A stretch of 64,000 nucleotides of DNA. Origin: a virus (Duplodnaviria; Caudoviricetes). The position numbers and the translations under genes are program-made. The number at the start of each line of letters is the position of its first letter. Positions within the stretch are counted from its first letter, which is position 1. The stretch lies in IMG/VR virus record IMGVR_UViG_3300010376_002108, positions 1 through 64,000 of that record, one strand, 5' to 3'. The notes below the pieces were generated by a model. That model saw nothing but the letters and a program-made list of their open reading frames with translations. It ran no database searches and had not been told where the DNA came from. Below, piece by piece: positions 7,583 to 25,670 of this stretch.

Positions 7583-8082
7583 TGACGTGCCAGTGGGCGC
7601 CGTGCGGCACTTTTTTCGAGGCGAAAACCAGGCGGGCGAAGTGGTGCTCGATTGGCTGCTCGGTGCGCGGGTCTAAGGCGGGCGAGCTTGGGGTGGCGAC
7701 GCTGGCGCCGGAGGGGGCGAAGGCGGGCCAGTCGGCGTCGCGGGATTCGGGTGGCCGGGGCGGGCGGGTGCCGTCGCGGTCGCGGCGCAAGCCGAAGGCG
7801 GTCCGGGCGGAGCTGGCGAAGTACACGCGGCAGGCGCTTGTGGCGGCGAAGCGGCTGGACACATGGTCGGGCCGGGCGGCGGTGGTGCTGGCTGCGCGGA
7901 TCGACGCGGGCGGCGCGGAAACCGGGTCGGCCCTCGCGTCGATGATCAAGGAGCATGCGGCGGCGATGGAGCGGGCGCTGGGCGGCGGGGAGGCCGCCGA
8001 CCCGGTGACGTCGCGGCAGGGCGAGATAGCACGGCGGGACGAGGTTGCGCAGCGGCGCCGTGAACGGTCTAGCGAGGGTTGA
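7573..8082 (+). CDS. putative terminase small subunit, with N-terminal Cys motif
   Basis: Immediately upstream of TerL; CQWAPC...KWCSIGC then helical LAARID...LASMIKE and DEVAQRRRER tail. Confidence 0.6.
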   Translation: MPLMTCQWAPCGTFFEAKTRRAKWCSIGCSVRGSKAGELGVATLAPEGAKAGQSASRDSGGRGGRVPSRSRRKPKAVRAELAKYTRQALVAAKRLDTWSGRAAVVLAARIDAGGAETGSALASMIKEHAAAMERALGGGEAADPVTSRQGEIARRDEVAQRRRERSSEG

Positions 8083-9574
8083 GCCGGCCCACTGGCACCT
8101 GGGCCCGGTTCACCGCACCTACGGCGACCTGGTGGCGGGCCTGTCCGCTGACATGGGCCGGGTGCCTGATGACAATCAGCGGGTGCTTTTGAACGGCATT
8201 CACGCCCTCGATGAGCGGGACCGGTCGGTGGCGTTTGAGGTGGTGCTGATCGCGTGCCGGCAGAACATCAAGACATCGACGCTGGAGATGTCGGCGCTGG
8301 GCTGGCTGTTCCTGTTCAACGTGAACCTGATCGTGTGGACGGCGCACCGGTGGGATGCGGTGGATGAGACGGTGCTGCGGTTCGATGAGATGATCAGCGG
8401 CAGGCCGTGGCTGGCCCGGCAGGTCAGGCAGTTCAACCGGGCCCGGCGGCAGGTGGAAATCACGACCAGGCGCGGCGGGCGGATGATGTTCGCCACCCGC
8501 ACCGCCGGGTCGGGGCGGGCGCTGACCGGCGAGAAAGTCATCATTGACGAGGGGTGGAAGGCGAAGGTCGCGCACACCGGCGGCCTGATCCCGACCATGT
8601 CGGCGCGGTCGATGACCGGGGATCCGCAGATCTTGTACGGGTCGAGCGCGGCGCACCCGGACAGCGAGGTTCTGCATCCGCTGATCCGCCGGGGCCGCGC
8701 CGCCGCCGCCGGGGGGAAGGCGGCCGAGCTGGAGCGGCGGCTGATGTACGCCGAATGGTGCGCGCCGCCGCCGGCGGAGGCGTGCCAGCTCGGGGATGAC
8801 TGCGCGCACGCGCTGGACGTGCCGGGCTGCGGGTGCGACAACCCGGTGATGGTGGGCAAGGCGAATCCGGCGCACGGCCGGCGGATCAGCATGGAGTTCA
8901 TCCTGGGGTCCGAACGGCGGTCGATGGACCCGCACGAGTACGGCCGGGAGCGGATGGGCTGGCACGACCACCCGGCCAGCATGCCGGAAGTGATCGGCCT
9001 GGCCGACTGGGCGGAGGGCCTGGACCCGAAGTCCGAGCCCGCCGGGACGGTCGCCCTGGCCGTGGTGTACACGTCGGACAAGCGGCGGGCGTGCATCGGC
9101 CTGGCCGGCAGGCGGGCTGACGGCGGCTGGCACGTGGAAATCGCGGACTACCTGGACAACACCGGGCACGTGACCCAGCGTGTCAAGCAGATCATCTCCA
9201 AGGCCGCCAAGCGGGGGGTGGACGTGCTGGGCCCGGCGGTGGACGGCCGGGCGCACGAGCAGGCGTGCATCAAGCCGCTGACCGCCGCGCGGGTGGACGT
9301 GGTCACCATGAAGACCGGCGACGTCACCGAGGCTTATGGCGGGTTTTTCGAGGCGGTGACCCAGGCGCGGAACGTGCACCATCGCGGGCAGGAGGAACTG
9401 ACGGTGGCCATGGCTGCGGCCGGCGCCCGGCAGGTGGGTGACGCCGGGGAGGCGTGGGGCCGCAAGGGCTCCGGGCAGGAGATAGCGCCGGTGGTGGCGG
9501 TGACAAATGCGATGTGGCTGTTCGCGGAGCGGGAGCCGCAGACCGGCGTGGAACCGGGCGCGTGGGCGCTGTGA
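8045..9574 (+). CDS. terL: terminase large subunit (start 8045 or 8060)
   Basis: Walker A-like ACRQNIKT, VWTAH, TRTAGSGRALTG, Walker B VIIDEG, C-terminal nuclease-like region. Confidence 0.9.
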   Translation: MRSGAVNGLARVEPAHWHLGPVHRTYGDLVAGLSADMGRVPDDNQRVLLNGIHALDERDRSVAFEVVLIACRQNIKTSTLEMSALGWLFLFNVNLIVWTAHRWDAVDETVLRFDEMISGRPWLARQVRQFNRARRQVEITTRRGGRMMFATRTAGSGRALTGEKVIIDEGWKAKVAHTGGLIPTMSARSMTGDPQILYGSSAAHPDSEVLHPLIRRGRAAAAGGKAAELERRLMYAEWCAPPPAEACQLGDDCAHALDVPGCGCDNPVMVGKANPAHGRRISMEFILGSERRSMDPHEYGRERMGWHDHPASMPEVIGLADWAEGLDPKSEPAGTVALAVVYTSDKRRACIGLAGRRADGGWHVEIADYLDNTGHVTQRVKQIISKAAKRGVDVLGPAVDGRAHEQACIKPLTAARVDVVTMKTGDVTEAYGGFFEAVTQARNVHHRGQEELTVAMAAAGARQVGDAGEAWGRKGSGQEIAPVVAVTNAMWLFAEREPQTGVEPGAWAL

Positions 9575-9726
9575 GCCGCCGCTGGCGCCGCTGGCTGGCC
9601 GGGGCGGTGTACCTCGCGTGCATCGGGTGGACGGTGGCGCGGGGCACGGCGGCGGTGCTGGAAGTCATCGGCGTGGCGGCGGGCCTGATGCTGGCGATGT
9701 GGCTGGACCGGTGGTCGCAACGGTGA
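9571..9726 (+). CDS. small membrane protein, 51 aa
   Basis: GTGA coupling; two hydrophobic stretches. Confidence 0.55.
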   Translation: MSRRWRRWLAGAVYLACIGWTVARGTAAVLEVIGVAAGLMLAMWLDRWSQR

Positions 9727-10346: not shown

Positions 10347-11930
10347 GTGGCGCGGCTGTATGACCGGATGCTGCGCCGCGCCGCGCCCCTGGGCTACTCC
10401 GAACGGGACTACACCGGCGCCGAGTACGTCGGCGGGATGGGCGGGGCCCTGGCCGGCCGGGAATCGGCGGCGCAGGGGATCGTCCGCCGCGCCCGGCAGG
10501 CGCACGCCGACAACGGGATCGTGTTCGCCGTCGAGGCGGTCAAGACGGCGCTGTTCGCGGAGGCCCGGTTCACCTACCAGGCCCTCACCGACGGGCACGA
10601 GTTCGGGGACACAAGCCTGGCGCTGCTGGAGCACCCGTGGCCGAACGCCGACTCGGGGGAGCTGCTGACCCGGATGGCGCAGGACGCCACGTTCGGCAAC
10701 TCCTACATGCGCAAGGCCACCCCGGCGGACGGGTCGGGGGACGTGCTGGTGCAGATGCGCCAGGAGCAGGTCACGATCGTGTCGCAGGAGATGCGCGACG
10801 ACATGGGCCGCATCTGGCGGCAGCCGGTCGGCTACCTGGAGGAAACCGGGCCGGGGAAGGACGATCAGTTTTTCACCGTGGACGAGGTGGGGCATTTCTC
10901 CCCGGTGCCCGATCCGAAAGCCCGCTGGCGGGGCATGTCGTGGCTGACCCCGATCCTCACCGAAGTGCACTCGGATAAGGCGCTGACCCAGTACAAGCAA
11001 TTCCACTTGGACAACGGGGCGATGCCCGGCCTGGTGGTCAAGTATTCGATGAAGCTGTCGGATAAGACGATCGGCATCCTGCGGAAGCGGATCCGGGCCC
11101 GGTACGGCGGCCCGGAAAACGCGGGCAACGTGCTGGTGCTCGATGAGGGCGCGGACATGGCCGTCGCCGGATCGTCGCTGCAAGACCTGCAATTCGACGC
11201 GGTGTCCAAAGCCGGGGAGCGGCGGGTGTGCGCCGCAGCCGGGCCGGGACTGCTGGTGATCTGCGGGTTTGAGCAGGGCGACCCGATGGCGGCGGTGCGG
11301 CAGCTCGCGGACTTCTGGGCCCGCCCGCGCTGGCGGATGGCGTGCGCCGCGCTGGAGCACCTGGTCGGCGGCCCGGCGGCCAGCCCGCAGGTGCCGGTCC
11401 GGCTGTGGTACGACGTGGCGGGGATCGCCGCGCTGCGCGAGGGCGAGCTGACCCGGGCGCAGGCGTACCTGGTGTCGATGCAGGCGGTGGCGTCGTCGGT
11501 GCAGGGCGGTTTCACCCGCGACTCGGCGGTGGCGGCGGCGGCCGGGTATGACATCTCGCTGCTCAAGCCGGACCCGAACGCCCCGCCGCCCGGGGTGTCG
11601 GGCCGGGCGACCGAGCGGGTCGGCCAGGGCGGTTTCGACGCGCAGGGCAACCCGCTGCCCGCCGGCCCGGCCGCGCCCACCGGCCCGTCGGCGGCGCCGG
11701 GGGCGGTCACCCAGCCGCCCACCGGAGGCCCGAGAGGCGGTTCCACCAGCGGCGGCCGGCGTGCCCCGCAGGCCGGCCGGCCGCAGCAGCTACCCGGGTC
11801 GGTCAAGCCGAACCTGCCCGCCGCGCTGCCCGCGTCGTTCGCGCCGATGCCCGCGCTGCCCGGCGGCGCACGCGGCGGCAACGGCCGGGCCCGCCGTTCC
11901 GAAGACGTCGAAGACGACACGGGCGAGTAG
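10347..11930 (+). CDS. portal protein (HK97 family)
   Basis: FGNSY, DPKARWRGMSWL, DNGAMPGLVV...YGGPENAGNVLVLDEG; Pro/Gly-rich tail; follows TerL. Confidence 0.9.
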   Translation: MARLYDRMLRRAAPLGYSERDYTGAEYVGGMGGALAGRESAAQGIVRRARQAHADNGIVFAVEAVKTALFAEARFTYQALTDGHEFGDTSLALLEHPWPNADSGELLTRMAQDATFGNSYMRKATPADGSGDVLVQMRQEQVTIVSQEMRDDMGRIWRQPVGYLEETGPGKDDQFFTVDEVGHFSPVPDPKARWRGMSWLTPILTEVHSDKALTQYKQFHLDNGAMPGLVVKYSMKLSDKTIGILRKRIRARYGGPENAGNVLVLDEGADMAVAGSSLQDLQFDAVSKAGERRVCAAAGPGLLVICGFEQGDPMAAVRQLADFWARPRWRMACAALEHLVGGPAASPQVPVRLWYDVAGIAALREGELTRAQAYLVSMQAVASSVQGGFTRDSAVAAAAGYDISLLKPDPNAPPPGVSGRATERVGQGGFDAQGNPLPAGPAAPTGPSAAPGAVTQPPTGGPRGGSTSGGRRAPQAGRPQQLPGSVKPNLPAALPASFAPMPALPGGARGGNGRARRSEDVEDDTGE

Positions 11931-14900
11931 GTGGCGGCCTGGGAGTCCCGGGCGTTCAACCCGCGTGAGCTGCGGGTGCTGCACGGGCTCGGCGGCGGCC
12001 GGTGGACCCGGGGCGGCGAGGCCGAGTCTGCGGGCGAGCTGGCCGCTGACGTGTTCCCCGGCCTGGTGGCCCTGTTCGTTCGCGAGCATCCCGCATCCCC
12101 CCAGGTGACCAGGTTCGCCGCGCAGGCGGCGGCGGCGGCACCCCGGCTGGTCGGCGGCGGCGCCGAATCGTTCACCGGCCGGGTCGCCGTCGGCAAGAGG
12201 GTCGGCGGCAGCAAGCACAACCTGGCCACCCTCGACTGGCACAGCGACCTGCACCTGCGCGACGACGTCGCGGCCCGGATGAGCCACGACGACCCGGCGG
12301 CGGCCGAGGTGATGCTGCACGAGATGATCCACGGCGTAGGCGTCCAGGCCGCCGACGCGGACGCCTACCAGGACAAGCAGGCCGCCGACGTCGAGGAAGG
12401 GTTCACCGAGCTGGGCGCGACCCTGCACGCGGGCGAGTTTTTCCGCCAGGCCGGGATCGACGGCCCCGCGACGCCGAAGGCGTGGGGGCATTATCCGGCG
12501 CAGACCAGCGCCGCCCTGGCGTGGGCGCGGCAGGTCGCGGCGCAGCGCGGCGTCACGGTGCAGCAGGTGGCTGATGAGATGAACCGGATGGGAGCGGCGG
12601 GCAAGGCTGACGCGGTGGCCCGGTCCGGGGTGCCATGGCCGGGCGAGGCGCGCCGGTCGGGCCAGCCGGATACCCCGGAGGCGATTCTGGCGTGGGCGTG
12701 GGCCGATCCGCGCCGCCGGGCCGCGCAGGCTTTTGCCCGGCTGGACGCGCTGCCCGCCGCCCCGGCCGTGTCGGACGCTGCCGCGATGCTGACCCGGCTG
12801 GCCGCCGCCCTCCCCGCCCGGGAGGGGGTGTCGCGGAAGTTCAACCCGTCCGAGCCCCGCGACCCGCACGGCCGGTGGACCGCCGAACTGGGTCGACTGT
12901 CCGCCGAGCTGCACCAGCACGAGATGCAAGACGACCTGGCCGGCATCCTCACCGGCGGCCACAAGGTGATCCACGGCAAGGTGGCCGCGCACCTGGCCAA
13001 AGCCCAGGACGCGCTGGACAACCGGCAGCCGCACCGGGCCCGCCACCACCTGGACGTGGCCGCCCGTCTGCTCGCCGGCCATCAGACCCGCACCCGCGCG
13101 GGGCATTACGGGCCGGCGCCCCGGCTGGGCGTCGCGGCGCTGCTGTCCCGCGCTGCGGTATCCGGGCATCACGTCCCGGGGACGCCCTACCATTACCGGC
13201 ACGGCTGGATCCCGGTCGCCCCCTATTTCAAGACCCCGGGTGACCTGTCCCCCGGCGACGTGGTCGAATTCCGGGGGCACAAGCACATGGTCACCGCGAC
13301 CCCCTCCCAGATTGCCAAGTCGCCGTGGCTGGGCGGGTGGACGACCAGCGCGGGCCGGCCGAACCGGGAAACCGGGGTGTTCCTCAAGCCGCTGGGCGCC
13401 GGGTCGCGGTTCATGCCGTCGTCGCAGGTGGCCACGTACAGCAACGTGACCGGCGAGCCCGCGCCGGGCCGGCCGCTCGGCGCGGCGCTTGCCTCGCAGG
13501 CCGCCCGGGAACGTGAAGCGGGAAACCTGCCCGGCGTGTCCACGGCGCTGGGGAACATGGCCGCCCGGCCGCTGCGCCCGCGTCCGGGCTCCGGGTGGAA
13601 AACCGGCGACCTGGTAAACGTCCGGGGCGAGAAGGGCACGCACCGGGTGCGCCACGTTCGGGGCGGCCTGGTGACGCTGGACGACGGGTCGGTGCACGTG
13701 CCGCGCTACCTGGACCCAGCCGGGACGCCGTCCGGGCCGCAGTTCCGCGCCGCAGCCGGGAAACGAGCCGACGCGGTCGGCTGGGGCGTGACCGGCGGGG
13801 TGCCGATGACCGGGGACGAGATCCTGTCCGCGCAGCCGCCCCGGCCGGGCGAGTCCCCGTCGGTGTACGAGTCGCGGCTGATGGGGATGCGCCAGTCGGC
13901 ATTCCGCAAGCCGGCCGGGCAACGTCCGTCGCCGCTGGCGTCGTGGCGGCCCGACCCGGGCGGCTGGGCGCAGGACCAGCTCGGCAACCTGAAACACGTT
14001 ATCGCGGTCAAGGGCAACAAGATCAAGGTGGAGCCGCCGGCGCGGAACGGTGCCGCGTGGATGCGCGCGGAGGATCTGCGCCCCTACGTACCGGTGGCCG
14101 AAGAACACGCCAAGCTCACCCAGCTTGGGCAGGCCCGGGACTTGTCCGGGCCGGACATGCTCGACCAGTGGTACGCGCACAACGTGCACGCGCCCATCAC
14201 GTCGCTGCGCCCGGCGGGCAACCCGGCCAAGGTGACCGTCGTCGGGCACGCCCTGTCCCCCGACCAGGTCGCGTTGCAGGCCCACCTGGACACCGGGATC
14301 CGGTCCGCGTCGTGGCTGGGCGGCGGCGCCCAGGCCGACACCCAACTGCTGGAGCTGGGCGACGGCACCGAGGCGGTCAAGAAAGATTTCAACCAGGGCT
14401 GGGGCGACGACATGGGGTCCGCCGAGTACCTGGCCGGCCAGGTGGGCGCGGCGGTGCAGGCCGGCGGCCCGGCGGTAGTGCACGACCCGGACAACCCGCA
14501 GGGCGTCCTCATGCAGTTCATGGACGGCGAACTGGCCGAGGACGCGTCACAAACCGAACTGTCCCGGGCGCAGAACAGCCCGCGCGGCTACCGGGTGGGC
14601 CTGCTGGACTACCTGACCCAGAACGACGACCGGCATCCGATGAACTACCTGATCAGCCCGTCCGGCGATCCGGTGCCGATCGACAATAGTTCCACGTTCG
14701 GCTACGAGGGCGGCGGGTGGGATTCGCCGTTCTGGTCGGCCTACCAGGACCAGATGCGCGCGGGCAAGTACCCGCTGTCGCTGGCCGACCTGAAAGCGGT
14801 GGGCAAGCGGATGACCGCGATCAAGGACGAGTTCCACGACGCCGGGCACGACGACTGGTACAAGGAGGCGATGGCGCGGCTGCGCCGCGTCGAGCAGGCC

Positions 14901-14939
14901 ACCCAGAACAAGACCGGCCGCACCTGGGGCAGCCTGTGA
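11931..14939 (+). CDS. multidomain head-region protein: FNP peptides, HExxH metallopeptidase-like domain, small beta-barrel modules, C-terminal HipA/PI3-PI4K-like kinase (kinase 1)
   Basis: MLHEMIHG...VEEGFTE; LGGGAQ...AVKK...AEYLA...GLLDYLTQNDDRHPMNYL...VPIDNS. Confidence 0.85.
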   Translation: MAAWESRAFNPRELRVLHGLGGGRWTRGGEAESAGELAADVFPGLVALFVREHPASPQVTRFAAQAAAAAPRLVGGGAESFTGRVAVGKRVGGSKHNLATLDWHSDLHLRDDVAARMSHDDPAAAEVMLHEMIHGVGVQAADADAYQDKQAADVEEGFTELGATLHAGEFFRQAGIDGPATPKAWGHYPAQTSAALAWARQVAAQRGVTVQQVADEMNRMGAAGKADAVARSGVPWPGEARRSGQPDTPEAILAWAWADPRRRAAQAFARLDALPAAPAVSDAAAMLTRLAAALPAREGVSRKFNPSEPRDPHGRWTAELGRLSAELHQHEMQDDLAGILTGGHKVIHGKVAAHLAKAQDALDNRQPHRARHHLDVAARLLAGHQTRTRAGHYGPAPRLGVAALLSRAAVSGHHVPGTPYHYRHGWIPVAPYFKTPGDLSPGDVVEFRGHKHMVTATPSQIAKSPWLGGWTTSAGRPNRETGVFLKPLGAGSRFMPSSQVATYSNVTGEPAPGRPLGAALASQAAREREAGNLPGVSTALGNMAARPLRPRPGSGWKTGDLVNVRGEKGTHRVRHVRGGLVTLDDGSVHVPRYLDPAGTPSGPQFRAAAGKRADAVGWGVTGGVPMTGDEILSAQPPRPGESPSVYESRLMGMRQSAFRKPAGQRPSPLASWRPDPGGWAQDQLGNLKHVIAVKGNKIKVEPPARNGAAWMRAEDLRPYVPVAEEHAKLTQLGQARDLSGPDMLDQWYAHNVHAPITSLRPAGNPAKVTVVGHALSPDQVALQAHLDTGIRSASWLGGGAQADTQLLELGDGTEAVKKDFNQGWGDDMGSAEYLAGQVGAAVQAGGPAVVHDPDNPQGVLMQFMDGELAEDASQTELSRAQNSPRGYRVGLLDYLTQNDDRHPMNYLISPSGDPVPIDNSSTFGYEGGGWDSPFWSAYQDQMRAGKYPLSLADLKAVGKRMTAIKDEFHDAGHDDWYKEAMARLRRVEQATQNKTGRTWGSL

Positions 14940-17065
14940 GCCTGACCCTGCGCGCCTACTCGGTGGCCACCGGCAAGCCGGCCGGGGACAACACGGTCAC
15001 CGTGGCCGACGACGGCACGATCACCTCCACCGGGACGGTGCTGGCCCGCGAGCTGGACGCGGTGATGACCAAGCTGCGGCTGCCCGCGCTGAAAGCGGCG
15101 CAGAAGATGGACGGCCAGTCCAACGGGTACGTGATCTTCGCGTCGGCGCCGCCGCGCCCGCCGCCGTGGGCGAAAAACGGCCAGGCGTCCCAGGCAGTGC
15201 TGTCCCGCGCCGCCGAACACGGCCACCACATCCCCGGCACCCCGTACCATTACCGGCACGGCTGGATCCCGGTGGCGCCGTACTTCAAGACCCCCGGCGA
15301 CCTGGCCCCGGGGGACATCGTGGAATTCCGGGGCCGCAAGCACATGGTGATCGCCACCCCCTCGCAGATCGCCGCCGGGGCGCAGGGCATGGGCGTGCAG
15401 GGCGCCACCCGCCCCGGGCGGCCGGACCGCCGGTCGGGGGTATTCCTGCGCCCGGTGCCGGGGATCTCGTCGCTGGTCGCGCCGTCGCAGGTCAAGTCGT
15501 ACACGAAAGTCGCCGGGACGCCCGCCCCCGGGCATGTCGCGGCCCGCGCCCCGGGGGACGTGCGGCAGGGCGACGTCGTGCACCTGGCCCCGCACCACGA
15601 CCTGCGAAGCATCTGGGGCCCCGGCTGGGGGAAGGGCGCAAAACTCGACGTGATGGAAGCCACCCCGGGGGACAACCTGGTGAAAGTCCGCCCCGCCGGG
15701 CGGCCGGGCGCGCAGGGGTACTGGCTGTCCAAAGGCACCGACATCACCCCGGCCCGGACCGGGACCAAGCCGCCGCCGGTGATCAACCACCTGGACGGGG
15801 CGCAGCAGGTCGCCAACGCGGTCAACGCGCAGATGCCCCCCGGCGAATCCGGCCACGCCAACGGCCTGGAAATCCTGGCCCTGTTCCCCCCGCACGAAGG
15901 CGAGTCGCCCCGCGCGTACCGCAACCGGCTCGCCGGGCTGGCCCCGTGGCAGGTGGACGTGCAACGGCAGGGCGCGAAAGTCGCCGCCCAGCAGGCCGAC
16001 CAGGAAGTCAAGGCGGGCATCCGCCCCGGCGCCCAGACCAAGGCGGCGGCGGCCGGCGCCCCGAGCGGGACGCTGGCCGAAGGGCAGTGGGTGCAAACCC
16101 CGTTCGGATCCGAGCACCAGGTGATCGAAGTGTTCCACAACGCGGTCCGGCTGGACGACCAGACGGTGTGGAACCGGCACGACCTGCACCCGACCGCCAC
16201 CCCGGCGGGTAAGCGCGGCCAGTCCGGGGCAGTTGAGAACCGGCTGCCGTTGCCTGAGTCCACCCCGTTCGCCGCCTACAACCACGGCCCGGCGGTGGCC
16301 GCCAGCCCGGCCGAGCTGCGCCCCGCAGGCAATCCGGGGAAGGTCACGGTCGTGGGCCACGCCGTGTCGCCGGGGCAGGCCGAGGTGCAGGGCCACCTGG
16401 ACTCGGGCATTGACTACACCGAGCACCTCGGCGCGGGCGCGCAGGGCACCGTGGACCTGGTGCACACCAAAGACGGCGGCACGATCGTCCGCAAGAAGCT
16501 CAAGCAGGGCGGGTGGGACGCCGAGACGATGGCCGACTCGGAATACTATGCCGCGCAGGTCGCGGAGGCGATCACCGGCACCGGCGCCAGCCCGGTGATC
16601 CGGGCCAAGCGGGGCAAGCTGACCATCTACGAGAAACTGGCCCCCGGCGACATAGCCGTCAACCACTACTCGGCTGAGGACGCCGCGTATGACACGCCCC
16701 GGGGGCTGCGGATCGGCCTGCTCGACTACCTGATCGACAACGGCGACCGGCACGACTACAACTGGATGCTCGACGGATCGCAGCCGGTGCCGATCGACAA
16801 CAGCTCCGGCTTCGGCGTGATAAACGCCTGGGGGTGGAACGGTTCGCCGTTCAGCGAGGCGTACCAGCGGGAATTCGAGGACGGCCGGCCGCCGATGACC
16901 GTCGCGGACCTGGAGGCAGCGCGGGCCCGGCTGGAAGCCGAACGGGCCGACTGGGTGGCCGGCGGCCGGGAAGACTGGCTGGACACGGTCGAATCCCGGC
17001 TGGACGGCGTCATAGACAGCACCAGGGCCGGCGGTCGCTCGCTGGCCGACGCGGGAGCGTTCTGA
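14936..17065 (+). CDS. head-region protein, 709 aa: N-terminal domain X, beta-barrel modules, C-terminal HipA/PI3-PI4K-like kinase (kinase 2)
   Basis: GTGA coupling at 14936; LGAGAQG...VRKK...SEYYA...GLLDYLIDNGDRHDYNWM...VPIDNS. Confidence 0.85.
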   Translation: MSLTLRAYSVATGKPAGDNTVTVADDGTITSTGTVLARELDAVMTKLRLPALKAAQKMDGQSNGYVIFASAPPRPPPWAKNGQASQAVLSRAAEHGHHIPGTPYHYRHGWIPVAPYFKTPGDLAPGDIVEFRGRKHMVIATPSQIAAGAQGMGVQGATRPGRPDRRSGVFLRPVPGISSLVAPSQVKSYTKVAGTPAPGHVAARAPGDVRQGDVVHLAPHHDLRSIWGPGWGKGAKLDVMEATPGDNLVKVRPAGRPGAQGYWLSKGTDITPARTGTKPPPVINHLDGAQQVANAVNAQMPPGESGHANGLEILALFPPHEGESPRAYRNRLAGLAPWQVDVQRQGAKVAAQQADQEVKAGIRPGAQTKAAAAGAPSGTLAEGQWVQTPFGSEHQVIEVFHNAVRLDDQTVWNRHDLHPTATPAGKRGQSGAVENRLPLPESTPFAAYNHGPAVAASPAELRPAGNPGKVTVVGHAVSPGQAEVQGHLDSGIDYTEHLGAGAQGTVDLVHTKDGGTIVRKKLKQGGWDAETMADSEYYAAQVAEAITGTGASPVIRAKRGKLTIYEKLAPGDIAVNHYSAEDAAYDTPRGLRIGLLDYLIDNGDRHDYNWMLDGSQPVPIDNSSGFGVINAWGWNGSPFSEAYQREFEDGRPPMTVADLEAARARLEAERADWVAGGREDWLDTVESRLDGVIDSTRAGGRSLADAGAF

Positions 17066-17066
17066 C

Positions 17067-18125
17067 ATGACCACGGTCATCCGCGCCTACGACTCCTACA
17101 CCGGCAAGCCGCTGCCCGGCAGCGTCACCGTGGACGGGGCCACGGTGACCGCCGAGCCCGCCGGGATGGAAGCCGCGCTCACCCGCTGGCTCGGCCCCGG
17201 GAAAACCCGCGCCGGGGCGGCCACGCTGCTGGACGGGTATAACAATGGCCGGGTGCTGTTCACCTCCGGTCCCGCGCCCAAGCCGGCCGAGGTGTCCCGG
17301 TTCAACCCGCGTGAGCTGCGCATCCCGCACGGGGCTGGCGGCGGCCGGTGGACACGCGGCCTGTCCGCCGGCGAAGCCGCCACCGCGTCGCTGCCCTACC
17401 ACGTCAAGGCGCTGCCCGGGGCGCCGGTGACCGGGGGCGCCCGGCAGGTCGCCGTGCACCTCGCCTCGGGGGTCCGGTCGGAAAAAGAGCCGGCGGTCAA
17501 GGGCATGCAGGGCACGACGACGATCGCCACGTTCGGGGACGGCGCCAAGGCTGTCCACAAAACCGGCATGGCCCCGGTCGAATTCGACCACGAGGAATTG
17601 GCCGGCCTGGTCGCGGACGCGATCGGCGGCACCCACGCCCCGGGCGTGCTGCGCACCGGGGCGAAGGAAATGTGGCTCGGCTTCGCGGCGGGCAGCCCGG
17701 CGGTCACCGCCAAGGCCAAGCTGCACCCCGAGCAGGTGGCCACCGACCCGCACGACCACTGGGACACCGACCCGCTGTTCGCCGGCGACCGGGGCCTGCG
17801 GATCGGCCTGCTCGACCTGCTCACCGAAAACCAGGACCGGCACTGGGGCAACTGGATGATCGACGGCGACCAGCCGGTGCCGATCGACCACTCCACCACG
17901 TTCGGCGCCAAAGGCGGCATGCCCGGCAGGTCCCCGTTCATGCTCTCCCTCACCCGCATGCACCCCGGGCATTTCACCCCCGCCCAGCTCGACCAGATCG
18001 GTGCCCGGCTGGAAGCCCTCGCCCCCGCATTCAAGGCACGCGGGCACGAGGACTGGCTGCGGATCGTGCTGAAAAACCTGGCCGACTTCCGCGAGGAAGC
18101 CGCGCAGGCACCGGGGGCCGGCTGA
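17067..18125 (+). CDS. head-region protein, 352 aa: domain X, FNP peptide, HipA/PI3-PI4K-like kinase (kinase 3)
   Basis: KGMQG...AVHK...HEELA...GLLDLLTENQDRHWGNWM...VPIDHS. Confidence 0.85.
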   Translation: MTTVIRAYDSYTGKPLPGSVTVDGATVTAEPAGMEAALTRWLGPGKTRAGAATLLDGYNNGRVLFTSGPAPKPAEVSRFNPRELRIPHGAGGGRWTRGLSAGEAATASLPYHVKALPGAPVTGGARQVAVHLASGVRSEKEPAVKGMQGTTTIATFGDGAKAVHKTGMAPVEFDHEELAGLVADAIGGTHAPGVLRTGAKEMWLGFAAGSPAVTAKAKLHPEQVATDPHDHWDTDPLFAGDRGLRIGLLDLLTENQDRHWGNWMIDGDQPVPIDHSTTFGAKGGMPGRSPFMLSLTRMHPGHFTPAQLDQIGARLEALAPAFKARGHEDWLRIVLKNLADFREEAAQAPGAG

Positions 18126-18379
18126 TGACCGACCTGTACGTGTATGACACCGCGACCGGGGCCCGGCTGGGCCGGGTCACCGTCACCGGCGGCCAGGTGG
18201 CCGCTGACAGCCCGTACGGGGTGATGGCCGGGCAGATCGCGGGGACAGCCAGCGGGCAGGCCGCAGTGCTGGCCGCGCTCAGCGGGTGGGACAACGGTTA
18301 CCTACTGATCACCGCCGACCCGGCGGCCCGGTTTGCCGACACCACGCCGGGTATCCCCCGGCCGCAGGAGGGATCGTGA
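18125..18379 (+). CDS. stand-alone domain X protein, 84 aa (candidate immunity/partner)
   Basis: TGATG coupling; YDTATGARLGRVTV...GWDNGYLLI aligns with the N-termini of 14936 and 17067. Confidence 0.7.
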   Translation: MTDLYVYDTATGARLGRVTVTGGQVAADSPYGVMAGQIAGTASGQAAVLAALSGWDNGYLLITADPAARFADTTPGIPRPQEGS

Positions 18380-19161: not shown

Positions 19162-20166
19162 ATGCCCGACGACTGGGTGGCCGAGCAGATGGCCGCGCTC
19201 GGCCTGACGGCCCGGTTCAACCCGCGTGAGGCACGGGTGCCGCACGGGACGGGCGGCGGCCGGTGGCGGCGCATCGGCCAGGCGGTCGCCGGCGCGGCCG
19301 GGGTCGGCCACGCCGCCGAGCTGGCCGCGTTCCCCGAGGGCGCGGTGCCGCACGCCGCGCACGACCCGGGCCGCGACCGGGGCGGCGTCCTGGCCCACTT
19401 GCACGGCGAGCACGGCGGGACTGGCGGCCTGGACCTAGGCGCAGCGGACGTGGCGGCGCTGCGGCAGGCGCACGAGGACGACCACGCCCGGTTCGCCGCG
19501 CACCTGCAAGCCGTGCACGCGGCCAAGGCGCGGGAGCGGGCCCTGGCCGGGCAGCGCGTCCCGGCGGCCCGGCCGGTGGAGGTGCCGCTGGCGGCGCGGG
19601 CGTTCAACCCGCGTGAGGCCCGCATCCCCGGCGGCCGGGGCGGCGGCCGGTGGACACGCGGCGGCCACGCGATGGTGCCGTTCGGGTTTGAGGGCAAGGC
19701 GGGCGGCGCCGGGCACGCGCGGGCGATGGAGGCGATGGCCGGCACGCTCGATGAGGAAGGCAACGGCCGGGACACGGCCCGGCTGGTCCGCGAGGCACTG
19801 CACGCGATGGTCCGCCGGGACCTGGACGCGGCCCGGCGGCACATGGACGGCGCGATCTACCAGGACCAGGTGAACAACGAAGGCGGCCACGGCCCGGAGC
19901 TGCGGGACATCAGGGCGTCGCTGGACCGGGTGCCGAAGACGGCCATGTCGATGCCCCGGCTGCCGGCGGTTCCCGCGTGGGAGAAGGCGCGCAAGGGCCT
20001 GGCCGGGCTCGGCTACCGGCCGGGCAAGGGGGTGCTGGGCGCGGATGTGACCGGCATGGGCGAGCCGGCCCAGTTTTCCGGGTACGCCGCCGGGGTCCGG
20101 TCCCGCCCCGCCGAACTGGACCGGGCAGCGGCAGCGGGCATACGCCGGCTGCGGCTGGGCGGCTGA
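19162..20166 (+). CDS. head-region protein with two FNPREAR...GGRW peptides, 334 aa
   Basis: ARFNPREARVPHGTGGGRW and RAFNPREARIPGGRGGGRWTRG. Confidence 0.75.
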   Translation: MPDDWVAEQMAALGLTARFNPREARVPHGTGGGRWRRIGQAVAGAAGVGHAAELAAFPEGAVPHAAHDPGRDRGGVLAHLHGEHGGTGGLDLGAADVAALRQAHEDDHARFAAHLQAVHAAKARERALAGQRVPAARPVEVPLAARAFNPREARIPGGRGGGRWTRGGHAMVPFGFEGKAGGAGHARAMEAMAGTLDEEGNGRDTARLVREALHAMVRRDLDAARRHMDGAIYQDQVNNEGGHGPELRDIRASLDRVPKTAMSMPRLPAVPAWEKARKGLAGLGYRPGKGVLGADVTGMGEPAQFSGYAAGVRSRPAELDRAAAAGIRRLRLGG

Positions 20167-20167
20167 C

Positions 20168-21691
20168 GTGGACCCGCTCGCGCTGGCCGAGGCGGACACG
20201 CTGATCGCCGGCTATCAGGCGTACGGCTGGCCGGATCCTGAGCTGGCCCGGACGGCGGAGACGGCGACCGCGTCCACCGTGCACCACCCGATTGGCCGGC
20301 CCGGCGGCCCCGGCCTGTGGAAGCACCCCACCTGGCAGCTTCCCGCCTACATCCAGAACGTGGCCAAGCACCTGGTGGTCAAGTTCGGGGAGTCACGCGG
20401 CATCGAGATGGCCGTGGGGATCGTGAAGAACTGGGCCGCCGGGCACGACGGCAAGGGCCACAGCGTCAGCGCCGTGGTGCAGGCGGCAGCAGGCCGGGCG
20501 ATAGCCGAATGGGAAGCCCTCAAGGCACGAACCAAACATGGAGCGAGGCGAACCTCAGTGACCAGCAGCGGCACCGAGCAGGACGGCCTGTCACGGGCCG
20601 CACTGGCGACGTCCAGCATCAACGACCTTCCCGACTCGGCGTTCGCGCTGATCAGCCCAGGCGGGAAAAAGGATGCCGAAGGGAAGACGACACCGCGTTC
20701 GCTCCGGCACCTGCCCATTCACGACAAGGCGCACGTCGCCAACGCGCTATCCCGGCTGCCCCAGTCGGACCTGAGCCCGGACGAGAAAAAGCAGGCGTTC
20801 GCCAAGATCAAGGCCGCCGCGCAAAAGATGGGAGTGCAAGTGGGAGCGAACAAGGCGGTCCCGGCGGCCAGCCGGGGCCAGTTCGGGGAGATTTTCCGGT
20901 TCTGGCCGCTGGAGGAATGCCGGATCATGCGCGCCGACGAGGGCCGCGAGTACGGGTCCGGGCGGGTGGTCGAAGCGTACGCGGCGGTGTACAACACCGA
21001 GGCGGAAATCCGCGACGGCGAAGGGCACTACACCGAGGAAATCGACCCGGGCGCGTTCCGCGACGTGCTCCGCTCAATCCACCCCGACCGCAACGGCGGC
21101 TACTGGAATACCACCTGCCTGTACAACCACGGGATGACCGTGCACGGCACCCCGGCCGAGCGGTTCAGCCTGCCCGCCGGCGTCCCGGTGCACATCGAGT
21201 CCGCCGATAAGGGCCTGGTCACCAGGACCGAGTACGCGGCCACCCCGCTGGGCGAGGAACTGCTGGAGCTGGTGAACATGGGCGCGCTGCGGTCGCAGTC
21301 GTTCACCGGCGGCATCGTCCGGTCCGACCCGCAGCTCATGCCGGGCAAGCGGTACGGCCGGGTCGGCGGGATGCTCCAGCGGGTGCGCAGGCTGGCCCTC
21401 GGCCTGCGCGAGTACGGGCTGACCCCGTTCGCGGCCTACTCGGGCGCCGAGGTGATGGGCGTCCGCATGCAGCTTCCCGGCACGGTCACCGACGACGACA
21501 ACTGGGACCAGTTGGAATCGGACCTGCTGGGGGAAACACCCGACGACGCGACGGCTCTCACCGACGAGGAAGGTGACGGCACTGGCGGTCCGCCCGAAGA
21601 CGGGCTCGCGTCCCGGTCCACCGGTAACCGGCTGTACCAGCTTCGCACCCGCGAGCTGCTGGAGCAGCACGGCATCAGCCTGCCCGAATAG
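20168..21691 (+). CDS. prohead (capsid maturation) protease, HK97 type, with two N-terminal accessory domains
   Basis: VEAYAAVYN, EEIDPGAF, CLYNHG (His), GALRSQSFTG (Ser), LREYGLTPFAAY; directly upstream of capsid. Confidence 0.85.
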   Translation: MDPLALAEADTLIAGYQAYGWPDPELARTAETATASTVHHPIGRPGGPGLWKHPTWQLPAYIQNVAKHLVVKFGESRGIEMAVGIVKNWAAGHDGKGHSVSAVVQAAAGRAIAEWEALKARTKHGARRTSVTSSGTEQDGLSRAALATSSINDLPDSAFALISPGGKKDAEGKTTPRSLRHLPIHDKAHVANALSRLPQSDLSPDEKKQAFAKIKAAAQKMGVQVGANKAVPAASRGQFGEIFRFWPLEECRIMRADEGREYGSGRVVEAYAAVYNTEAEIRDGEGHYTEEIDPGAFRDVLRSIHPDRNGGYWNTTCLYNHGMTVHGTPAERFSLPAGVPVHIESADKGLVTRTEYAATPLGEELLELVNMGALRSQSFTGGIVRSDPQLMPGKRYGRVGGMLQRVRRLALGLREYGLTPFAAYSGAEVMGVRMQLPGTVTDDDNWDQLESDLLGETPDDATALTDEEGDGTGGPPEDGLASRSTGNRLYQLRTRELLEQHGISLPE

Positions 21692-21712: not shown

Positions 21713-23212
21713 ATGCGTTTGCAGGAAATGCTGGACCGCCAGTCCGCGATCCGCAACGAGCTGGCGTCGATGGACGCCGACCCGACCGTCACCGAGGAAG
21801 GCGACGGCAACATCCGCGACACCCTCATAGACGAATATGAGGCCCTGGAGCGGCTCAAAGAGCCGGTGATCGCCCGGATGGAGAAGATCAAGCTGATCCA
21901 GCGGGCAGCCGGCGACCCGGCCAACCGGGACAGCATCGACGGCGGCTACGACGCCCCGGCGGCGGCCACGGCACAGCGGTGGCAGGGCGGCGGCACGCCC
22001 GAGTTCATGTCCCGCCTGGACCCGTTCGCGGAACTGGACAAGGTGCGGGACGGCCTGGTCCGGGGCAGCGACATGGTGGCCCGGTCGATGAACGTCATCG
22101 AGATGCACAACAAGCGGGGCATGCTGCTGCCCGAGCGGGCCGAGGAAGCCACCCGCAAGTGCGCGGGGGATCCGATGATCGCCCGGCATGCGCTGCTCAC
22201 CGGCCACGACGAGTACGTGGAGGCGTTCCGCGCCTACGTCAACGACCCGCAAGGCGACGGCCTGAGAATGGCCCAGCGGTCGCTCACTCTCGGTACAGCA
22301 TCAGGTGGCTATCTGCTACCGTACGTGCTTGACCCGACTATCGTGATCACGAGCGACGGGTCTGTTAATCCCTACCGCGCAATGGCGGAAATCAAGACCA
22401 CGACGTCGAACGCGTGGCAGGGCGTCAACTCGGCCGGCGTCAACATGGGCTGGCTCGATGAGGGCGGCACCGCGTCCGACAACACGCCCGGCACCGGGCA
22501 GATCCAGGTGTTCGTCAAGAAGGCCGCCGCGTGGGTGATCGGCTCATTCGAGTCGGTGGGTGACACGAATTTCGCGGACCAGCTTCCCCGGCTGCTCGCG
22601 GACTCCAAGGACATTCTGGAGGAAGCGGCGTTCGCGCGGGGCACCGGCGGCACCGGCAACTCCGGCCAGCCGTTGGGCGTCCTCAACGCGCTCGGCACCG
22701 CGCAGCGGGTCCTGGCCGGCGGGTCGGGCCTGGCCGCGTTCACGTTCGGCACCGCCGGGGTCAACGGCGGCGGCCTGGGTGACCTGATGGCGCTCAACTC
22801 CGCGCTCGGCCCCCGGTTCCGCATGTCGCCGTCGGTGGGCTGGGTGGCGACGATCACCAACATCAACCGGATCCGCACCCTCGACCAGTACGGAGGCGCG
22901 GGTTTCTGGGTCAACTTGGGGCAGGGCACTCCGCCTGCCCTGATGGAGAAGCAGATCCGCGAGTCGCCCAGCCTGACCCAGACCCCGGGGACGGGCACGG
23001 CGCTGGCCGCCGCGTCGGCGGTGTTCGGGGACTGGTCGAAGTTCTATGTGGTTGACCGGATCGGGAGCACGATGCTGTTCGACCCGCTGATCAAGAACGC
23101 GGGCACCGCCAACATGCCATCCGGCAACCAAGGCTGGTTCTACTACTGGCGGACCGGCAGTGGCGTGGCCACGCCGAACGCGTTCCGGTGGGCAACCGGC
23201 GGCACCGCGTAG
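21713..23212 (+). CDS. major capsid protein, HK97 fold with N-terminal delta domain
   Basis: Coiled-coil N-terminus, then SGGYLLPY..DPTI, WLDEG, FGDWSKFYVVDR. Confidence 0.92.
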   Translation: MRLQEMLDRQSAIRNELASMDADPTVTEEGDGNIRDTLIDEYEALERLKEPVIARMEKIKLIQRAAGDPANRDSIDGGYDAPAAATAQRWQGGGTPEFMSRLDPFAELDKVRDGLVRGSDMVARSMNVIEMHNKRGMLLPERAEEATRKCAGDPMIARHALLTGHDEYVEAFRAYVNDPQGDGLRMAQRSLTLGTASGGYLLPYVLDPTIVITSDGSVNPYRAMAEIKTTTSNAWQGVNSAGVNMGWLDEGGTASDNTPGTGQIQVFVKKAAAWVIGSFESVGDTNFADQLPRLLADSKDILEEAAFARGTGGTGNSGQPLGVLNALGTAQRVLAGGSGLAAFTFGTAGVNGGGLGDLMALNSALGPRFRMSPSVGWVATITNINRIRTLDQYGGAGFWVNLGQGTPPALMEKQIRESPSLTQTPGTGTALAAASAVFGDWSKFYVVDRIGSTMLFDPLIKNAGTANMPSGNQGWFYYWRTGSGVATPNAFRWATGGTA

Positions 23213-23756: not shown

Positions 23757-25670
23757 TTGAAAATCTTGTGGCACAGCAACGGGCCCGCGCCGCTGTCCAA
23801 CACCGGCTACGGCGTGCAGACGGCCCTGTTCACCCCCCGGATCCGCGACATGGGCCACGAGGTGGCCATCTCATGCATGACCGCGATCACCGGGTTCCCG
23901 TCCACCTGGGAGGACATGCCGCTGCTGCCCGCCGGGCTGACCGCCTACAGCGCGGACGTGCTGCCGCAGCACGCCCGGCATTTCTTCGGCCGTGACCCGG
24001 GGCTGGTGATCGTCCACTATGACGCGTGGGCGATTCCCCCGGAGACGGTGCACGGCCTGGCCACCGCGTGCTGGTCGCCGGTGCACTCGGACAAGATGTC
24101 CGCCCCGGACCGGGCGTTCTACGCGCTGACCGAGGCAGTGCCCATGTCCTACTCCCAGCACGGCGTCAAGGCGATGCGTGCGGCCGGGCTCAGCCCGCTG
24201 TACGTGCCGCACGGCGTGGACACCGGGGTTTTCCGGCCGCTGTCTGATGATGAGCGGGCGCGGGCGCGGGCCGAGCTGAACATCCCGCCGGGCGCGTTCG
24301 TGGTCGCCGCCGTGGGCGCGAACAAGGGCACCGACCCGCCGCGCAAGGGCTGGGGTGAGCTGTTCCACGGGTTCGCCCGGTTCCGCGAGCGGCATCCGGA
24401 CGCGGTGCTGGTGTGCCACACGCTGGCCGCGACCCCGGATCAGTGGGGGCTGGACATGCGGCCGATCATCGCGGACCTGGGCATAGGCGACTCGGTGATC
24501 TTTTCCGAGGATTACGCGCAGGTGTGCGGCCTGTACCCGGCGTCGTACGTGGCGAAGCTGACCGGCTGCGCGGACGTGCTGGCCAACCCGTCGTGGGGTG
24601 AGGGGTTCGGCCTGGCGATCCTCCAGGCGCTTGCCTGCGGGGTGCCGGTCATCGTCGGGGACAACTCGGCGCAGACGGAGCTGTGCCCGAAAACGGTCGG
24701 CTGGCGGGTGTCGTGCCAGCCGTACTGGTTCTGGCGTGATCAGGCCAACTGGGCGTGCCCGTCGATCGGCGGCCTGGCTGCGGCGCTGGAGAACGCGTGG
24801 CGGGCCCGGGGGTCGGTGTCGCTGCGGTCGCGGTGCCGCCAGTTCGCGGAATCCTATGACGCGGACCTGGTCGCGGCCACCTATTGGAAGCCGGCTGTCG
24901 AGATGCTGGAGCAGCTTGCCGGGGCGGCCCGGATCCGGCCGCCGGGCAACGGCGGAAGCGTGCCGCTGCCCACCCGCGAGGTGGACGGGCTGCGGTGGCT
25001 GGCCCGGGGGCAGCACACCGACGACTGGATTTCGGTGGCGCACGAGGACGCGCTGGAGCCGGTGCTGTCCGGGCTGCTGCCCGAGGGCGGGGTGCTGCTG
25101 GACGTGGGCGCGCACGTGGGCCGGTGGGCGCTTAGGCTCGCCGGGAAGGCCAGCCGGGTGATCGCGGTGGAGGCGCACCCGGATACCGCTGCGGCGCTGC
25201 GCTACCACGTGACGCTGAACGGGCTGGACGACAAGGTGACGGTGATCGAATGCGCCGCGTGGGATTCGCATGCCCGGCTGGCGATGGCCGACGAGAACCT
25301 GAAAGTCACCGGCGGCTCGACCCGGGTCATTGACACCGACGCGCCGGTGGCCGAGCTGCCGCTCAAGGCGTGGCAGGTGGAGGCGTGGCCGCTGGACGCC
25401 ATCTTGGACGACGACACCAACCAGATCGACCTGTTCAAACTCGACGTCGAAGGCGCCGACCTGCACGCGCTGCGGGGCATGGCGATGATGCTGCGGCAGT
25501 GCCGCCCGGTGCTGTTCATCGAAGACCACTCGATTTACGGCTACTACGAGCAGGCGGACCTGCTGGCCCTGCTCGATGAGCTGGGCTATGACGCGGAGCC
25601 GTTCATCGCGCGGCTGGCCGGGGACCGGCAGGCGCCGTACGTGATCGCCCGGCCCCGTGATGACGGCTGA
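23757..25670 (+). CDS. GT-B (GT4-like) glycosyltransferase fused to an FkbM-family methyltransferase
   Basis: TGYGVQT, PHGVDTGVF, DPPRKGW, PSWGEGFGLAILQALACGVPVI; then LLDVGAHVG, VIAVEA, LFKLDVEGAD; AGGAGG SD with TTG start. Confidence 0.9.
   Translation: MKILWHSNGPAPLSNTGYGVQTALFTPRIRDMGHEVAISCMTAITGFPSTWEDMPLLPAGLTAYSADVLPQHARHFFGRDPGLVIVHYDAWAIPPETVHGLATACWSPVHSDKMSAPDRAFYALTEAVPMSYSQHGVKAMRAAGLSPLYVPHGVDTGVFRPLSDDERARARAELNIPPGAFVVAAVGANKGTDPPRKGWGELFHGFARFRERHPDAVLVCHTLAATPDQWGLDMRPIIADLGIGDSVIFSEDYAQVCGLYPASYVAKLTGCADVLANPSWGEGFGLAILQALACGVPVIVGDNSAQTELCPKTVGWRVSCQPYWFWRDQANWACPSIGGLAAALENAWRARGSVSLRSRCRQFAESYDADLVAATYWKPAVEMLEQLAGAARIRPPGNGGSVPLPTREVDGLRWLARGQHTDDWISVAHEDALEPVLSGLLPEGGVLLDVGAHVGRWALRLAGKASRVIAVEAHPDTAAALRYHVTLNGLDDKVTVIECAAWDSHARLAMADENLKVTGGSTRVIDTDAPVAELPLKAWQVEAWPLDAILDDDTNQIDLFKLDVEGADLHALRGMAMMLRQCRPVLFIEDHSIYGYYEQADLLALLDELGYDAEPFIARLAGDRQAPYVIARPRDDG

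Follow-up and report, generated by a model that had tools for sequence, protein, structure and literature searches.

For the MuF polymorphic toxins of temperate phages, packaging and injection have been predicted (PMC5576092, PMC3482391). The same prediction exists for the polyvalent proteins of phages and conjugative elements, each a string of effector domains that includes a zincin-like peptidase, with genes next to those of the virion; their kinases are either Kinase-PolyVal, a truncated Ser/Thr/Tyr-type kinase from Verrucomicrobia and Bacteroidetes prophages, or of the zeta type (PMC5512222). In a further system, the kinase HipT is neutralized by HipS, a split-off N-subdomain of HipA (PMC10627512). 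Here, we describe a block of three PI4K/CtkA/HipA-like kinase genes, with a small domain (X) and a short leader motif, between the portal and prohead protease genes of a provirus (Duplodnaviria; Caudoviricetes). The window analyzed is the first 64 kb of the 78.7-kb IMG/VR record IMGVR_UViG_3300010376_002108, which has a CheckV completeness estimate of 87% and a G+C content of ~72%. By analogy, the block appears to work like the MuF toxins and polyvalent proteins but without a MuF domain.

Injected phage proteins decide the first minutes of infection, but to our knowledge only a small number have been described beyond those of T4, P1, and N4 and the MuF toxins. The T4 internal proteins and Alt carry a short N-terminal capsid-targeting sequence that is removed by the prohead protease. 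The T7 gp0.7 kinase acts on host proteins and is made after infection, not injected. The likeness to T4 would be that a short N-terminal peptide loads otherwise unrelated proteins into the prohead and that injected enzymes modify host proteins. The block has no sequence relation to the T4 or T7 proteins, however, and a targeting role of its motif is proposed by analogy. Alt and the T7 kinase are both cited in the polyvalent-protein paper (PMC5512222).

As with MuF toxins, the genes lie by the portal in the head module and the C-terminal effector domain is swapped among relatives. In addition, fusions of this kinase domain to MuF exist elsewhere, such as in phage L008 and in other family members, and the slot holds a zeta toxin in L011 and L013 (L numbers denote related loci; P numbers denote family proteins). 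In contrast to MuF toxins, the provirus lacks the defining MuF domain and has several separate putative cargo genes, each with a short leader instead. Protein A, with a zincin-like domain and a kinase, is a small version of a polyvalent protein, but the kinase is PI4K/CtkA/HipA-like rather than Kinase-PolyVal or zeta type, and the string is split into separate coupled open reading frames (ORFs). Term searches found no PI4K/HipA-type kinase among the toxin domains named in PMC5576092 and PMC3482391 or among the domains in PMC5512222. A literature search, which was limited and is no proof of novelty, found no such kinase in MuF or polyvalent proteins and no paper on domain X or the leader motif.

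Three diverged kinases downstream of the portal gene

ORFs A, B, and C follow the portal gene (Table 1), and each ends in a kinase domain of ~240 amino acids (aa). The sequence-only reading, an earlier inspection of the window, had described three consecutive, translationally coupled ORFs with terminal kinase domains, and this was confirmed by the ORF coordinates, junctions, and motifs. The catalytic loops were found where it had placed them (DDRHPMN at 14625, GDRHDYN at 16742, and QDRHWGN at 17832), as were the Gly-rich and Lys motifs. The metal-binding motifs IDNS, IDNS, and IDHS were located in A, B, and C at 14679, 16793, and 17883, respectively. The proposed interval, 11931 to 18379, holds the three kinase ORFs and at its end also takes in ORF D, which has no kinase domain. 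The location between portal and protease is right as to the flanking genes; direct adjacency to the protease gene was not found, with D, E, and F intervening.

Judged from its sequence, the locus reads as a siphovirus-type late operon on the + strand. From the portal stop codon to the protease start, all junctions overlap or have a gap of 0 to 1 base, except for a short gap before F. The GTG start of B overlaps the stop of A (GTGA), the ATG of C lies one base past the stop of B, and the start of D overlaps the stop of C.

In pairwise alignments, A and B were 37% identical over 632 columns (E 2e-94) and B and C were 38% identical over 232 columns (E 2e-25). The similarity of the three proteins at this level is far beyond chance, which makes them paralogues. 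The kinase copies have diverged, with 31 to 40% identity between copies. In a 63-sequence family alignment, K165, D257, R258, N262, I273, and D274 (C numbering) were invariant and E176 was nearly so, and A, B, and C all retain these seven residues. The catalytic residues were also invariant or nearly so across 47 family members. Since the Lys, Glu, DRxxxN, and ID positions are invariant family-wide, A, B, and C included, all three kinases look catalytically competent.

The HipA/PI3-PI4K-like identity proposed from the sequence was upheld by the fold as well as by the catalytic motifs. When C was modeled with AlphaFold, using the 63-sequence alignment as input, its C-terminal domain (residues ~113 to 352) adopted a kinase fold with a predicted local distance difference test (pLDDT) score of >90 and a Foldseek probability of 1.00. 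The best structural match was Helicobacter pylori CtkA (3akk; Z 14.5, root mean square deviation 3.6, 211 aligned residues, 11% identity), followed by type II PI4K (Z 14.3; PI4KII-alpha, 4hnd, and PI4KII-beta), PI4KIII-beta and Fam20C (Z 12.0), VPS34 (Z 11.5), and HipT/HipA (7vkc, 7wcf, and 4pu3; Z 11.2 to 11.5). CtkA is likewise a compact PI4K/HipA-type Ser/Thr kinase and a secreted or exported effector, but apart from the low identity, it targets eukaryotic cells and is unconnected with phage heads.

Against a kinase assignment stand the PF00454 scores of A, B, and C (16.9, 19.9, and 20.9 bits), which are under the gathering cut-off of 27.1. These sub-threshold scores, together with the strong divergence of the copies, would suit kinase-like domains that lack activity and act as structural internal head proteins or as scaffold-like filler. 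However, the catalytic and metal-binding residues are retained in all three copies and family-wide, and every copy has a conserved orthologue elsewhere, which makes inactive filler highly unlikely. The PF00454 matches of A, B, and C span the catalytic-loop region only; among the 47 relatives, 31 matched at E <= 1e-5, the best of them well over the cut-off. When A, B, and C were scanned against Pfam at E <= 0.1, PI3_PI4_kinase and Fam20C were the only families returned, with no Kinase-PolyVal. By these profile matches, the window kinases are divergent members of a clade only partly covered by Pfam, and we have very little doubt that the three domains are real kinases.

Kinase family and the slot between portal and capsid genes

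An exhaustive profile search returned 2124 cluster representatives of the kinase family at E <= 1e-3 and 419 at E <= 1e-30. This size is visible only by such a search; a word-indexed homologue search gave 7 matches for C. Many members are 2000 to 6300 aa long, and those of 2500 to 6300 aa combine kinase, ADP-ribosyltransferase, NUDIX, and DUF7178 domains. Domain fusions were counted by Pfam in 47 mid-size members and by local iterative search in the 151 best family matches. The mid-size members carried Phage_Mu_F (6), Phage_min_cap2 (4), VG15 (4), portal (3), and ADP-ribosyltransferase (6, as 4 + 2) domains, and NUDIX, HopA1, and 2H-type domains also occurred. A MuF-like domain was present in 36 of the 151 best matches (about a quarter).

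The sequence-only reading knew of no precedent for a triple kinase array. Two or three kinase domains were found in 33 of ~150 family proteins; thus, several kinases per locus are a habit of the family, and uniqueness of the array is ruled out. A recent triplication did not hold up either. A tree of 182 domains placed A, B, and C within one 11-leaf clade (support 0.94), and the nearest neighbor of each lay in another phage (Table 1). Because each copy has its closer relative in another phage, recent tandem triplication is ruled out, and in this tree, A, B, and C are old, maintained paralogues.

The placement of the kinase recurs in relatives, with a kinase protein between portal and capsid in every sufficiently long context retrieved. 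In L008, the portal is followed by one 1315-aa MuF+NUDIX+kinase+zincin protein. L016 and L017 have a Mu-type portal, a small MuF protein, and kinase polyproteins of 1739 and 1822 aa, respectively, and L018, L022, and L023 have a kinase protein between portal and capsid. A portal scan of a genome collection returned no relatives. The single match for B among cultured phages, a weak one obtained with tblastn, was Microbacterium phage Pumpernickel (L021; NC_073468.1, 33094 to 40090), a cultured, lytic phage of 186 kb. Its portal (gp80) is followed by the X-like gp81 (71 aa) and by gp82 (2235 aa), which has a C-terminal kinase and the sequence RDRFGRW near residue 30; all are annotated as hypothetical. 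As a cultured relative, Pumpernickel (gp80 to gp82) provides a ready experimental system.

The slot was compared among phages whose portals are 59 to 66% identical to that of the window (L011, L013, L015, and L018). L015 has two zincin-like domains, F- and E-like parts, one kinase, and X, and L018 has one A-type kinase followed by an X-led 584-aa protein. L013 has a zincin-like protein and then a 1221-aa string with F- and E-like parts that ends in a zeta toxin (E 1.5e-26), with no kinase. L011 has a DUF7178 extension on the portal, a DNA methylase, and a zeta toxin, with no kinase, X, or zincin. Accordingly, the earlier description of the interval as polymorphic and effector-like was borne out, with a kinase, a zeta toxin, or a methylase plus a zeta toxin in the slot. 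The methylase, zeta toxin, ADP-ribosyltransferase, and NUDIX domains are of kinds already described in MuF toxins or polyvalent proteins (PMC5512222, PMC5576092, PMC3482391). In L013 (9424 to 13089) and L011 (4189 to 7342), whose portals are 65 to 66% identical to that of the window, the zeta toxin stands where the window has kinases. The L011 methylase is of the N6/N4 type.

On balance, we favor the view that the portal-to-protease interval is a MuF-independent variable cargo cassette, the proteins of which would be incorporated into the procapsid and delivered along with the DNA. Alternatively, the kinases may stay unpackaged and act late in the producer cell, for example on phage assembly proteins or host factors, or they may form a HipT/HipS-like toxin-antitoxin or abortive-infection module, with the head operon providing timing only. 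No MuF or other known anchor is present, a kinase with a small partner resembles the HipT/HipS layout, and defense and toxin-antitoxin cargo is frequent in prophages, all of which fit such a role. However, MuF-like domains are fused to about a quarter of family members, and in some cases the fusion partner is the portal itself. In addition, a translationally coupled position between portal and protease is not normal for defense cargo. The leader is also common to the block and the prohead protease of relatives. Moreover, the slot content varies freely among close relatives and is therefore not an assembly requirement. We consider unpackaged kinases unlikely and lean moderately toward packaged and injected effector cargo of the head module.

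Leader motif, zincin-like domain, and domain X

The more informative parts of the block, which the sequence-only reading left unused, are the zincin-like domain of A, domain X, and the shared leader. The absence of MuF claimed in that reading was confirmed, with no match to PF04233, PF06152, or PF25310 at E <= 1 in six frames of the 78.7-kb record. A MuF domain in disguise was rejected as well: the Phage_Mu_F, Phage_min_cap2, and VG15 profiles were empty, and the N-terminus of A had no Pfam match. When the model of this N-terminus was compared with a viral structure library, there was no convincing match to a MuF or minor capsid protein, and the best hit was an uncharacterized protein (E 0.065).

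The leader in its strict form, NP[RS]ExRxx(x)G..GRW, has five copies in the window, and all of them lie in this block (two in A, one in C, and two in F); the copy in E is degenerate. The form in the block is NPRExRxPxGxxGRW, and a broader form is [FY][ND]PxExR(D)xxG..(R/K)W; relatives have HPRDxxGR(F/W) or NPxEPRDPxGKW. In A, E, and F, and in nearly all portal-to-capsid proteins of L013, L015, L016, L017, and L018, the leader is found within the first ~45 residues. The prohead proteases of L013 (residue 27), L015 (residue 14), and L018 (residue 24) have it near their N-termini as well. Since the prohead protease must enter the procapsid and shares the leader, this is the best available argument that leader-bearing proteins go there. 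The leader may thus be a procapsid loading signal, an assignment that we make tentatively and at somewhat less than even confidence. These data fit a cleavage site for the zincin or the prohead protease equally well, and one role does not preclude the other. Among the 151 best family matches, the motif was present within the first 60 residues of 21 and a MuF-like domain in 36, with no overlap (0/36 versus 21/115; Fisher p 0.004, a statistic that ignores relatedness).

The predicted zincin-like domain of A (residues ~55 to 260) also ends or punctuates the kinase polyproteins P0149, P0056/L008, P0026, and P0011, as well as the 703-aa protein of L015. Its motifs are kept in 7 aligned sequences, and the pattern is that of a gluzincin. 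The domain model had a pLDDT of 62, and its best domain-wide matches were the catalytic domains of M1/M61 aminopeptidases (Z 6 to 7). For residues 1 to 420 of A, no Pfam match was found at E <= 10, MPTase-PolyVal included, and the word-indexed homologue search found only A itself. The N-terminus of A had no tblastn match among cultured phages, and a feature search of a protein atlas with residues 1 to 400 gave scores of 0.84 to 0.86 and no usable family. E and F have conserved counterparts in L013 and L015. The end of E is formed by a long hydrophobic stretch (residues ~150 to 190), which is conserved inside the L013 and L015 polyproteins, and E may be a membrane-inserting ejection protein.

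Domain X is ~65 aa long and has the signature GWSNGY. It forms the N-terminus of B, the N-terminus of C, and all of D, so that an X lies within a few bases 3' of all three kinase domains of the window. Of 11 other loci with a kinase, 10 have X next to the kinase or the kinase polyprotein; it follows the C-terminal kinase in L015, L018, L019, L020, L022, and L023 and stands alone directly 5' of the kinase polyprotein in L016, L017, and Pumpernickel (gp81). Like the leader, X extends to unrelated phages. It tracks the preceding kinase whatever its own fusion: many copies are joined to the protein that comes next, and the one in L018 begins a kinase-less protein. A Pfam search with X gave noise only, including DUF7055 at E 0.009, and the X region of the C model had a pLDDT of <55. 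The protein atlas model of the L017 X (64 aa) matched clusters of the HipA N-terminal domain (Couple_hipA) with template modeling scores of 0.64 and 0.59, and on this model a HipS-like nature of X is a lead only. That X inhibits the kinase is possible, though we give it rather less than an even chance. In L013, a 68-aa, probably helical ORF (13132 to 13338, +) lies directly after the zeta-toxin domain, in the usual position of X. An epsilon-like antitoxin was considered for it and found unsupported (no Pfam match); that it is an antidote is a guess.

Compared with HipBST and HipBA (PMC10627512, PMC6581861), the block has a HipA/HipT-like kinase fold (Z about 11) and a small domain that is either N-terminally fused or in its own adjacent ORF, like HipA N-subdomain 1 and HipS. 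However, it has no HipB-type helix-turn-helix partner gene, and its genes belong to a head operon, with all ORFs coupled to structural genes, rather than to a stand-alone operon. In addition, the kinase resembles CtkA and PI4KII more closely than HipA, and X has no sequence match to Couple_hipA and is shorter (~65 versus ~100 aa).

The position of X also bears on a different purpose for the same delivery, namely a polymorphic toxin-immunity system between bacteria like that proposed for MuF toxins, in which lysogen-released particles would carry kinase toxins that kill non-lysogenic relatives rather than aid infection, with X as the cognate immunity protein shielding the lysogen. Immunity genes follow toxin domains, just as X lies directly 3' of each kinase domain, and in L013, a different small helical ORF comes after the zeta toxin of this slot. 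In addition, the element is a provirus, its slot exchanges toxin types among relatives, and HipA-type kinases and zeta toxins are established growth-arresting toxins. However, in B, C, and the 584-aa protein of L018, X forms an in-frame fusion with the cargo protein that comes next, an unusual arrangement for an immunity protein. No promoter of its own is visible within the tightly coupled late operon, and X precedes the polyprotein in L016, L017, and Pumpernickel. The same set is found in the lytic Pumpernickel, and the co-resident DNA methylase, NUDIX, and ADP-ribosyltransferase domains suggest takeover or counter-defense. Interbacterial killing is thus an improbable purpose.

The genes, the kinase fold and catalytic residues, the paralogy, the synteny, the slot variability, the X adjacency, and the motif distribution are direct observations; beyond these, we infer the following course for the cargo cassette. 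The cargo would consist of three long-diverged PI4K-II/CtkA/HipA-like kinases (A, B, and C types), to which A adds a zincin-like peptidase, and the accessory proteins E, with its hydrophobic segment, and F would complete the set. The block would be read late, translationally coupled with the portal, protease, and capsid genes, and the leader in its broader form would bring each protein into the assembling prohead. In the producing cell, X would hold the kinase in check or chaperone it, possibly as HipS holds HipT. The zincin, the prohead protease, or both may cut at or near the leaders. Upon infection, the kinases would accompany the DNA into the cell, where their substrates would be host proteins or small molecules, serving takeover or counter-defense.

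Several observations weigh against parts of this scheme. The sole candidate capsid anchor for the block proteins is the putative leader. The window protease has only a loose motif-like stretch (HHPIGRPGGPGLW) near residue 40, and the motif in L022 is loose too. The motif also occurs between domains inside polyproteins (L013, L015, L017, and L020), and therefore a cleavage site or flexible linker fits as well as a docking peptide. Its exclusion from MuF proteins may come partly from shared ancestry and from MuF occupying the N-terminus. The HipS-like view of X comes from one automatic structure comparison of a 64-aa protein; the Couple_hipA profile (PF13657) found no match in X, and a PDB profile search with X gave only chance-level matches to enoyl-CoA hydratase. 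Finally, the zincin call is based on motifs and on Z scores of 6 to 7, which are within the noise range quoted by the tool.

A bolder version of the cargo reading appears doubtful, though less so than unpackaged kinases or interbacterial killing. Here, the leader would be a general, MuF-independent address label for any protein, the prohead protease included, across a broad range of actinobacterial and Mu-like phages. The kinases would be a large undescribed class of injected effectors, silenced in the producer by a HipS-like X, with three paralogues for three host targets. Together with its relatives, the locus defines a large family of kinases (more than 2000 sequence clusters) with ties to the head modules of phages, as well as a conserved small partner domain and a candidate loading peptide shared with the prohead protease. 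If this is indeed a portable capsid-loading peptide, it would also be of practical use for loading phage heads with proteins of choice.

Feature coordinates and neighboring genes

Table 1. Features of the head module in the 64-kb window, with window positions
Feature	Position	Strand	Remarks
Large terminase	8045-9574	+	
Portal	10347-11930	+	PF04860, E 2e-19; phrog_12; stop codon abuts start of A
Protein A, 1002 aa	11931-14939	+	Leader, zincin-like domain, second motif, GHHxPGTPYHYRHGWIP/beta-rich middle region, kinase
A leader motif NPRELRVLHGLGGGRW	11958-12005	+	Residues 10-25 of A
A gluzincin-like metallopeptidase domain (predicted)	12093-12710	+	HExxH (HEMIH at 12318), EEGFTE (12393), AWGHY
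A second motif copy NPSEPRDPHGRW	12843-12878	+	After zincin-like domain
A kinase domain (A type)	14220-14936	+	Nearest relative P0036 of L018
Protein B, 709 aa	14936-17065	+	Domain X, middle region common to A, kinase
Domain X at B N-terminus	14945-15151	+	Directly after A kinase; X profile E 6e-21
B kinase domain (B type)	16331-17044	+	Nearest relative P0052 of L022
Protein C, 352 aa	17067-18125	+	Domain X, leader motif, kinase
Domain X at C N-terminus	17067-17273	+	Directly after B kinase; X profile E 1.7e-21
C leader motif NPRELRIPHGAGGGRW	17304-17351	+	
C kinase domain (C type)	17394-18122	+	Nearest relative second domain of P0002 (L023)
ORF D, 84 aa	18125-18379	+	Stand-alone domain X directly after C kinase; no kinase domain
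ORF E, 198 aa	18376-18972	+	Degenerate leader RELRVPHGPHGGEW, predicted coiled coil, hydrophobic C-terminal segment
ORF F, 334 aa	19162-20166	+	Two motif copies, 19219-19266 and 19606-19653
Prohead protease (DUF6582 plus S78/HK97, HK97 type)	20168-21691	+	
HK97-type major capsid protein	21713-23212	+	TIGR01554, E 1.4e-29

The middle region with GHHxPGTPYHYRHGWIP and a beta-rich segment lies at 13137 to 13310 in A and at 15194 to 15370 in B and is also found in P0036, P0052, and the L013 polyprotein (~9570 to 9650). A similar sequence, GPKGYxHGW, lies 5' of the kinase in P0003 to P0006.

Directly 3' of the capsid gene, a 637-aa protein (23757 to 25670, +) combines a group-1/GT4 glycosyltransferase with an FkbM-type methyltransferase, and the same gene is found at the same place in L018. 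This fusion could be a virion glycosylation enzyme. Further downstream, a 1041-aa ORF (29921 to 33046, +) has no Pfam match and lies in the stretch with the highest G+C content (0.75 to 0.78); from its position and size, it is probably the tape measure protein. Among the long tail proteins encoded downstream, one of 1330 aa (38405 to 42397, +) has NlpC/P60 and lysozyme-like domains, and a separate amidase_2 endolysin is encoded at 49468 to 50892 (+).

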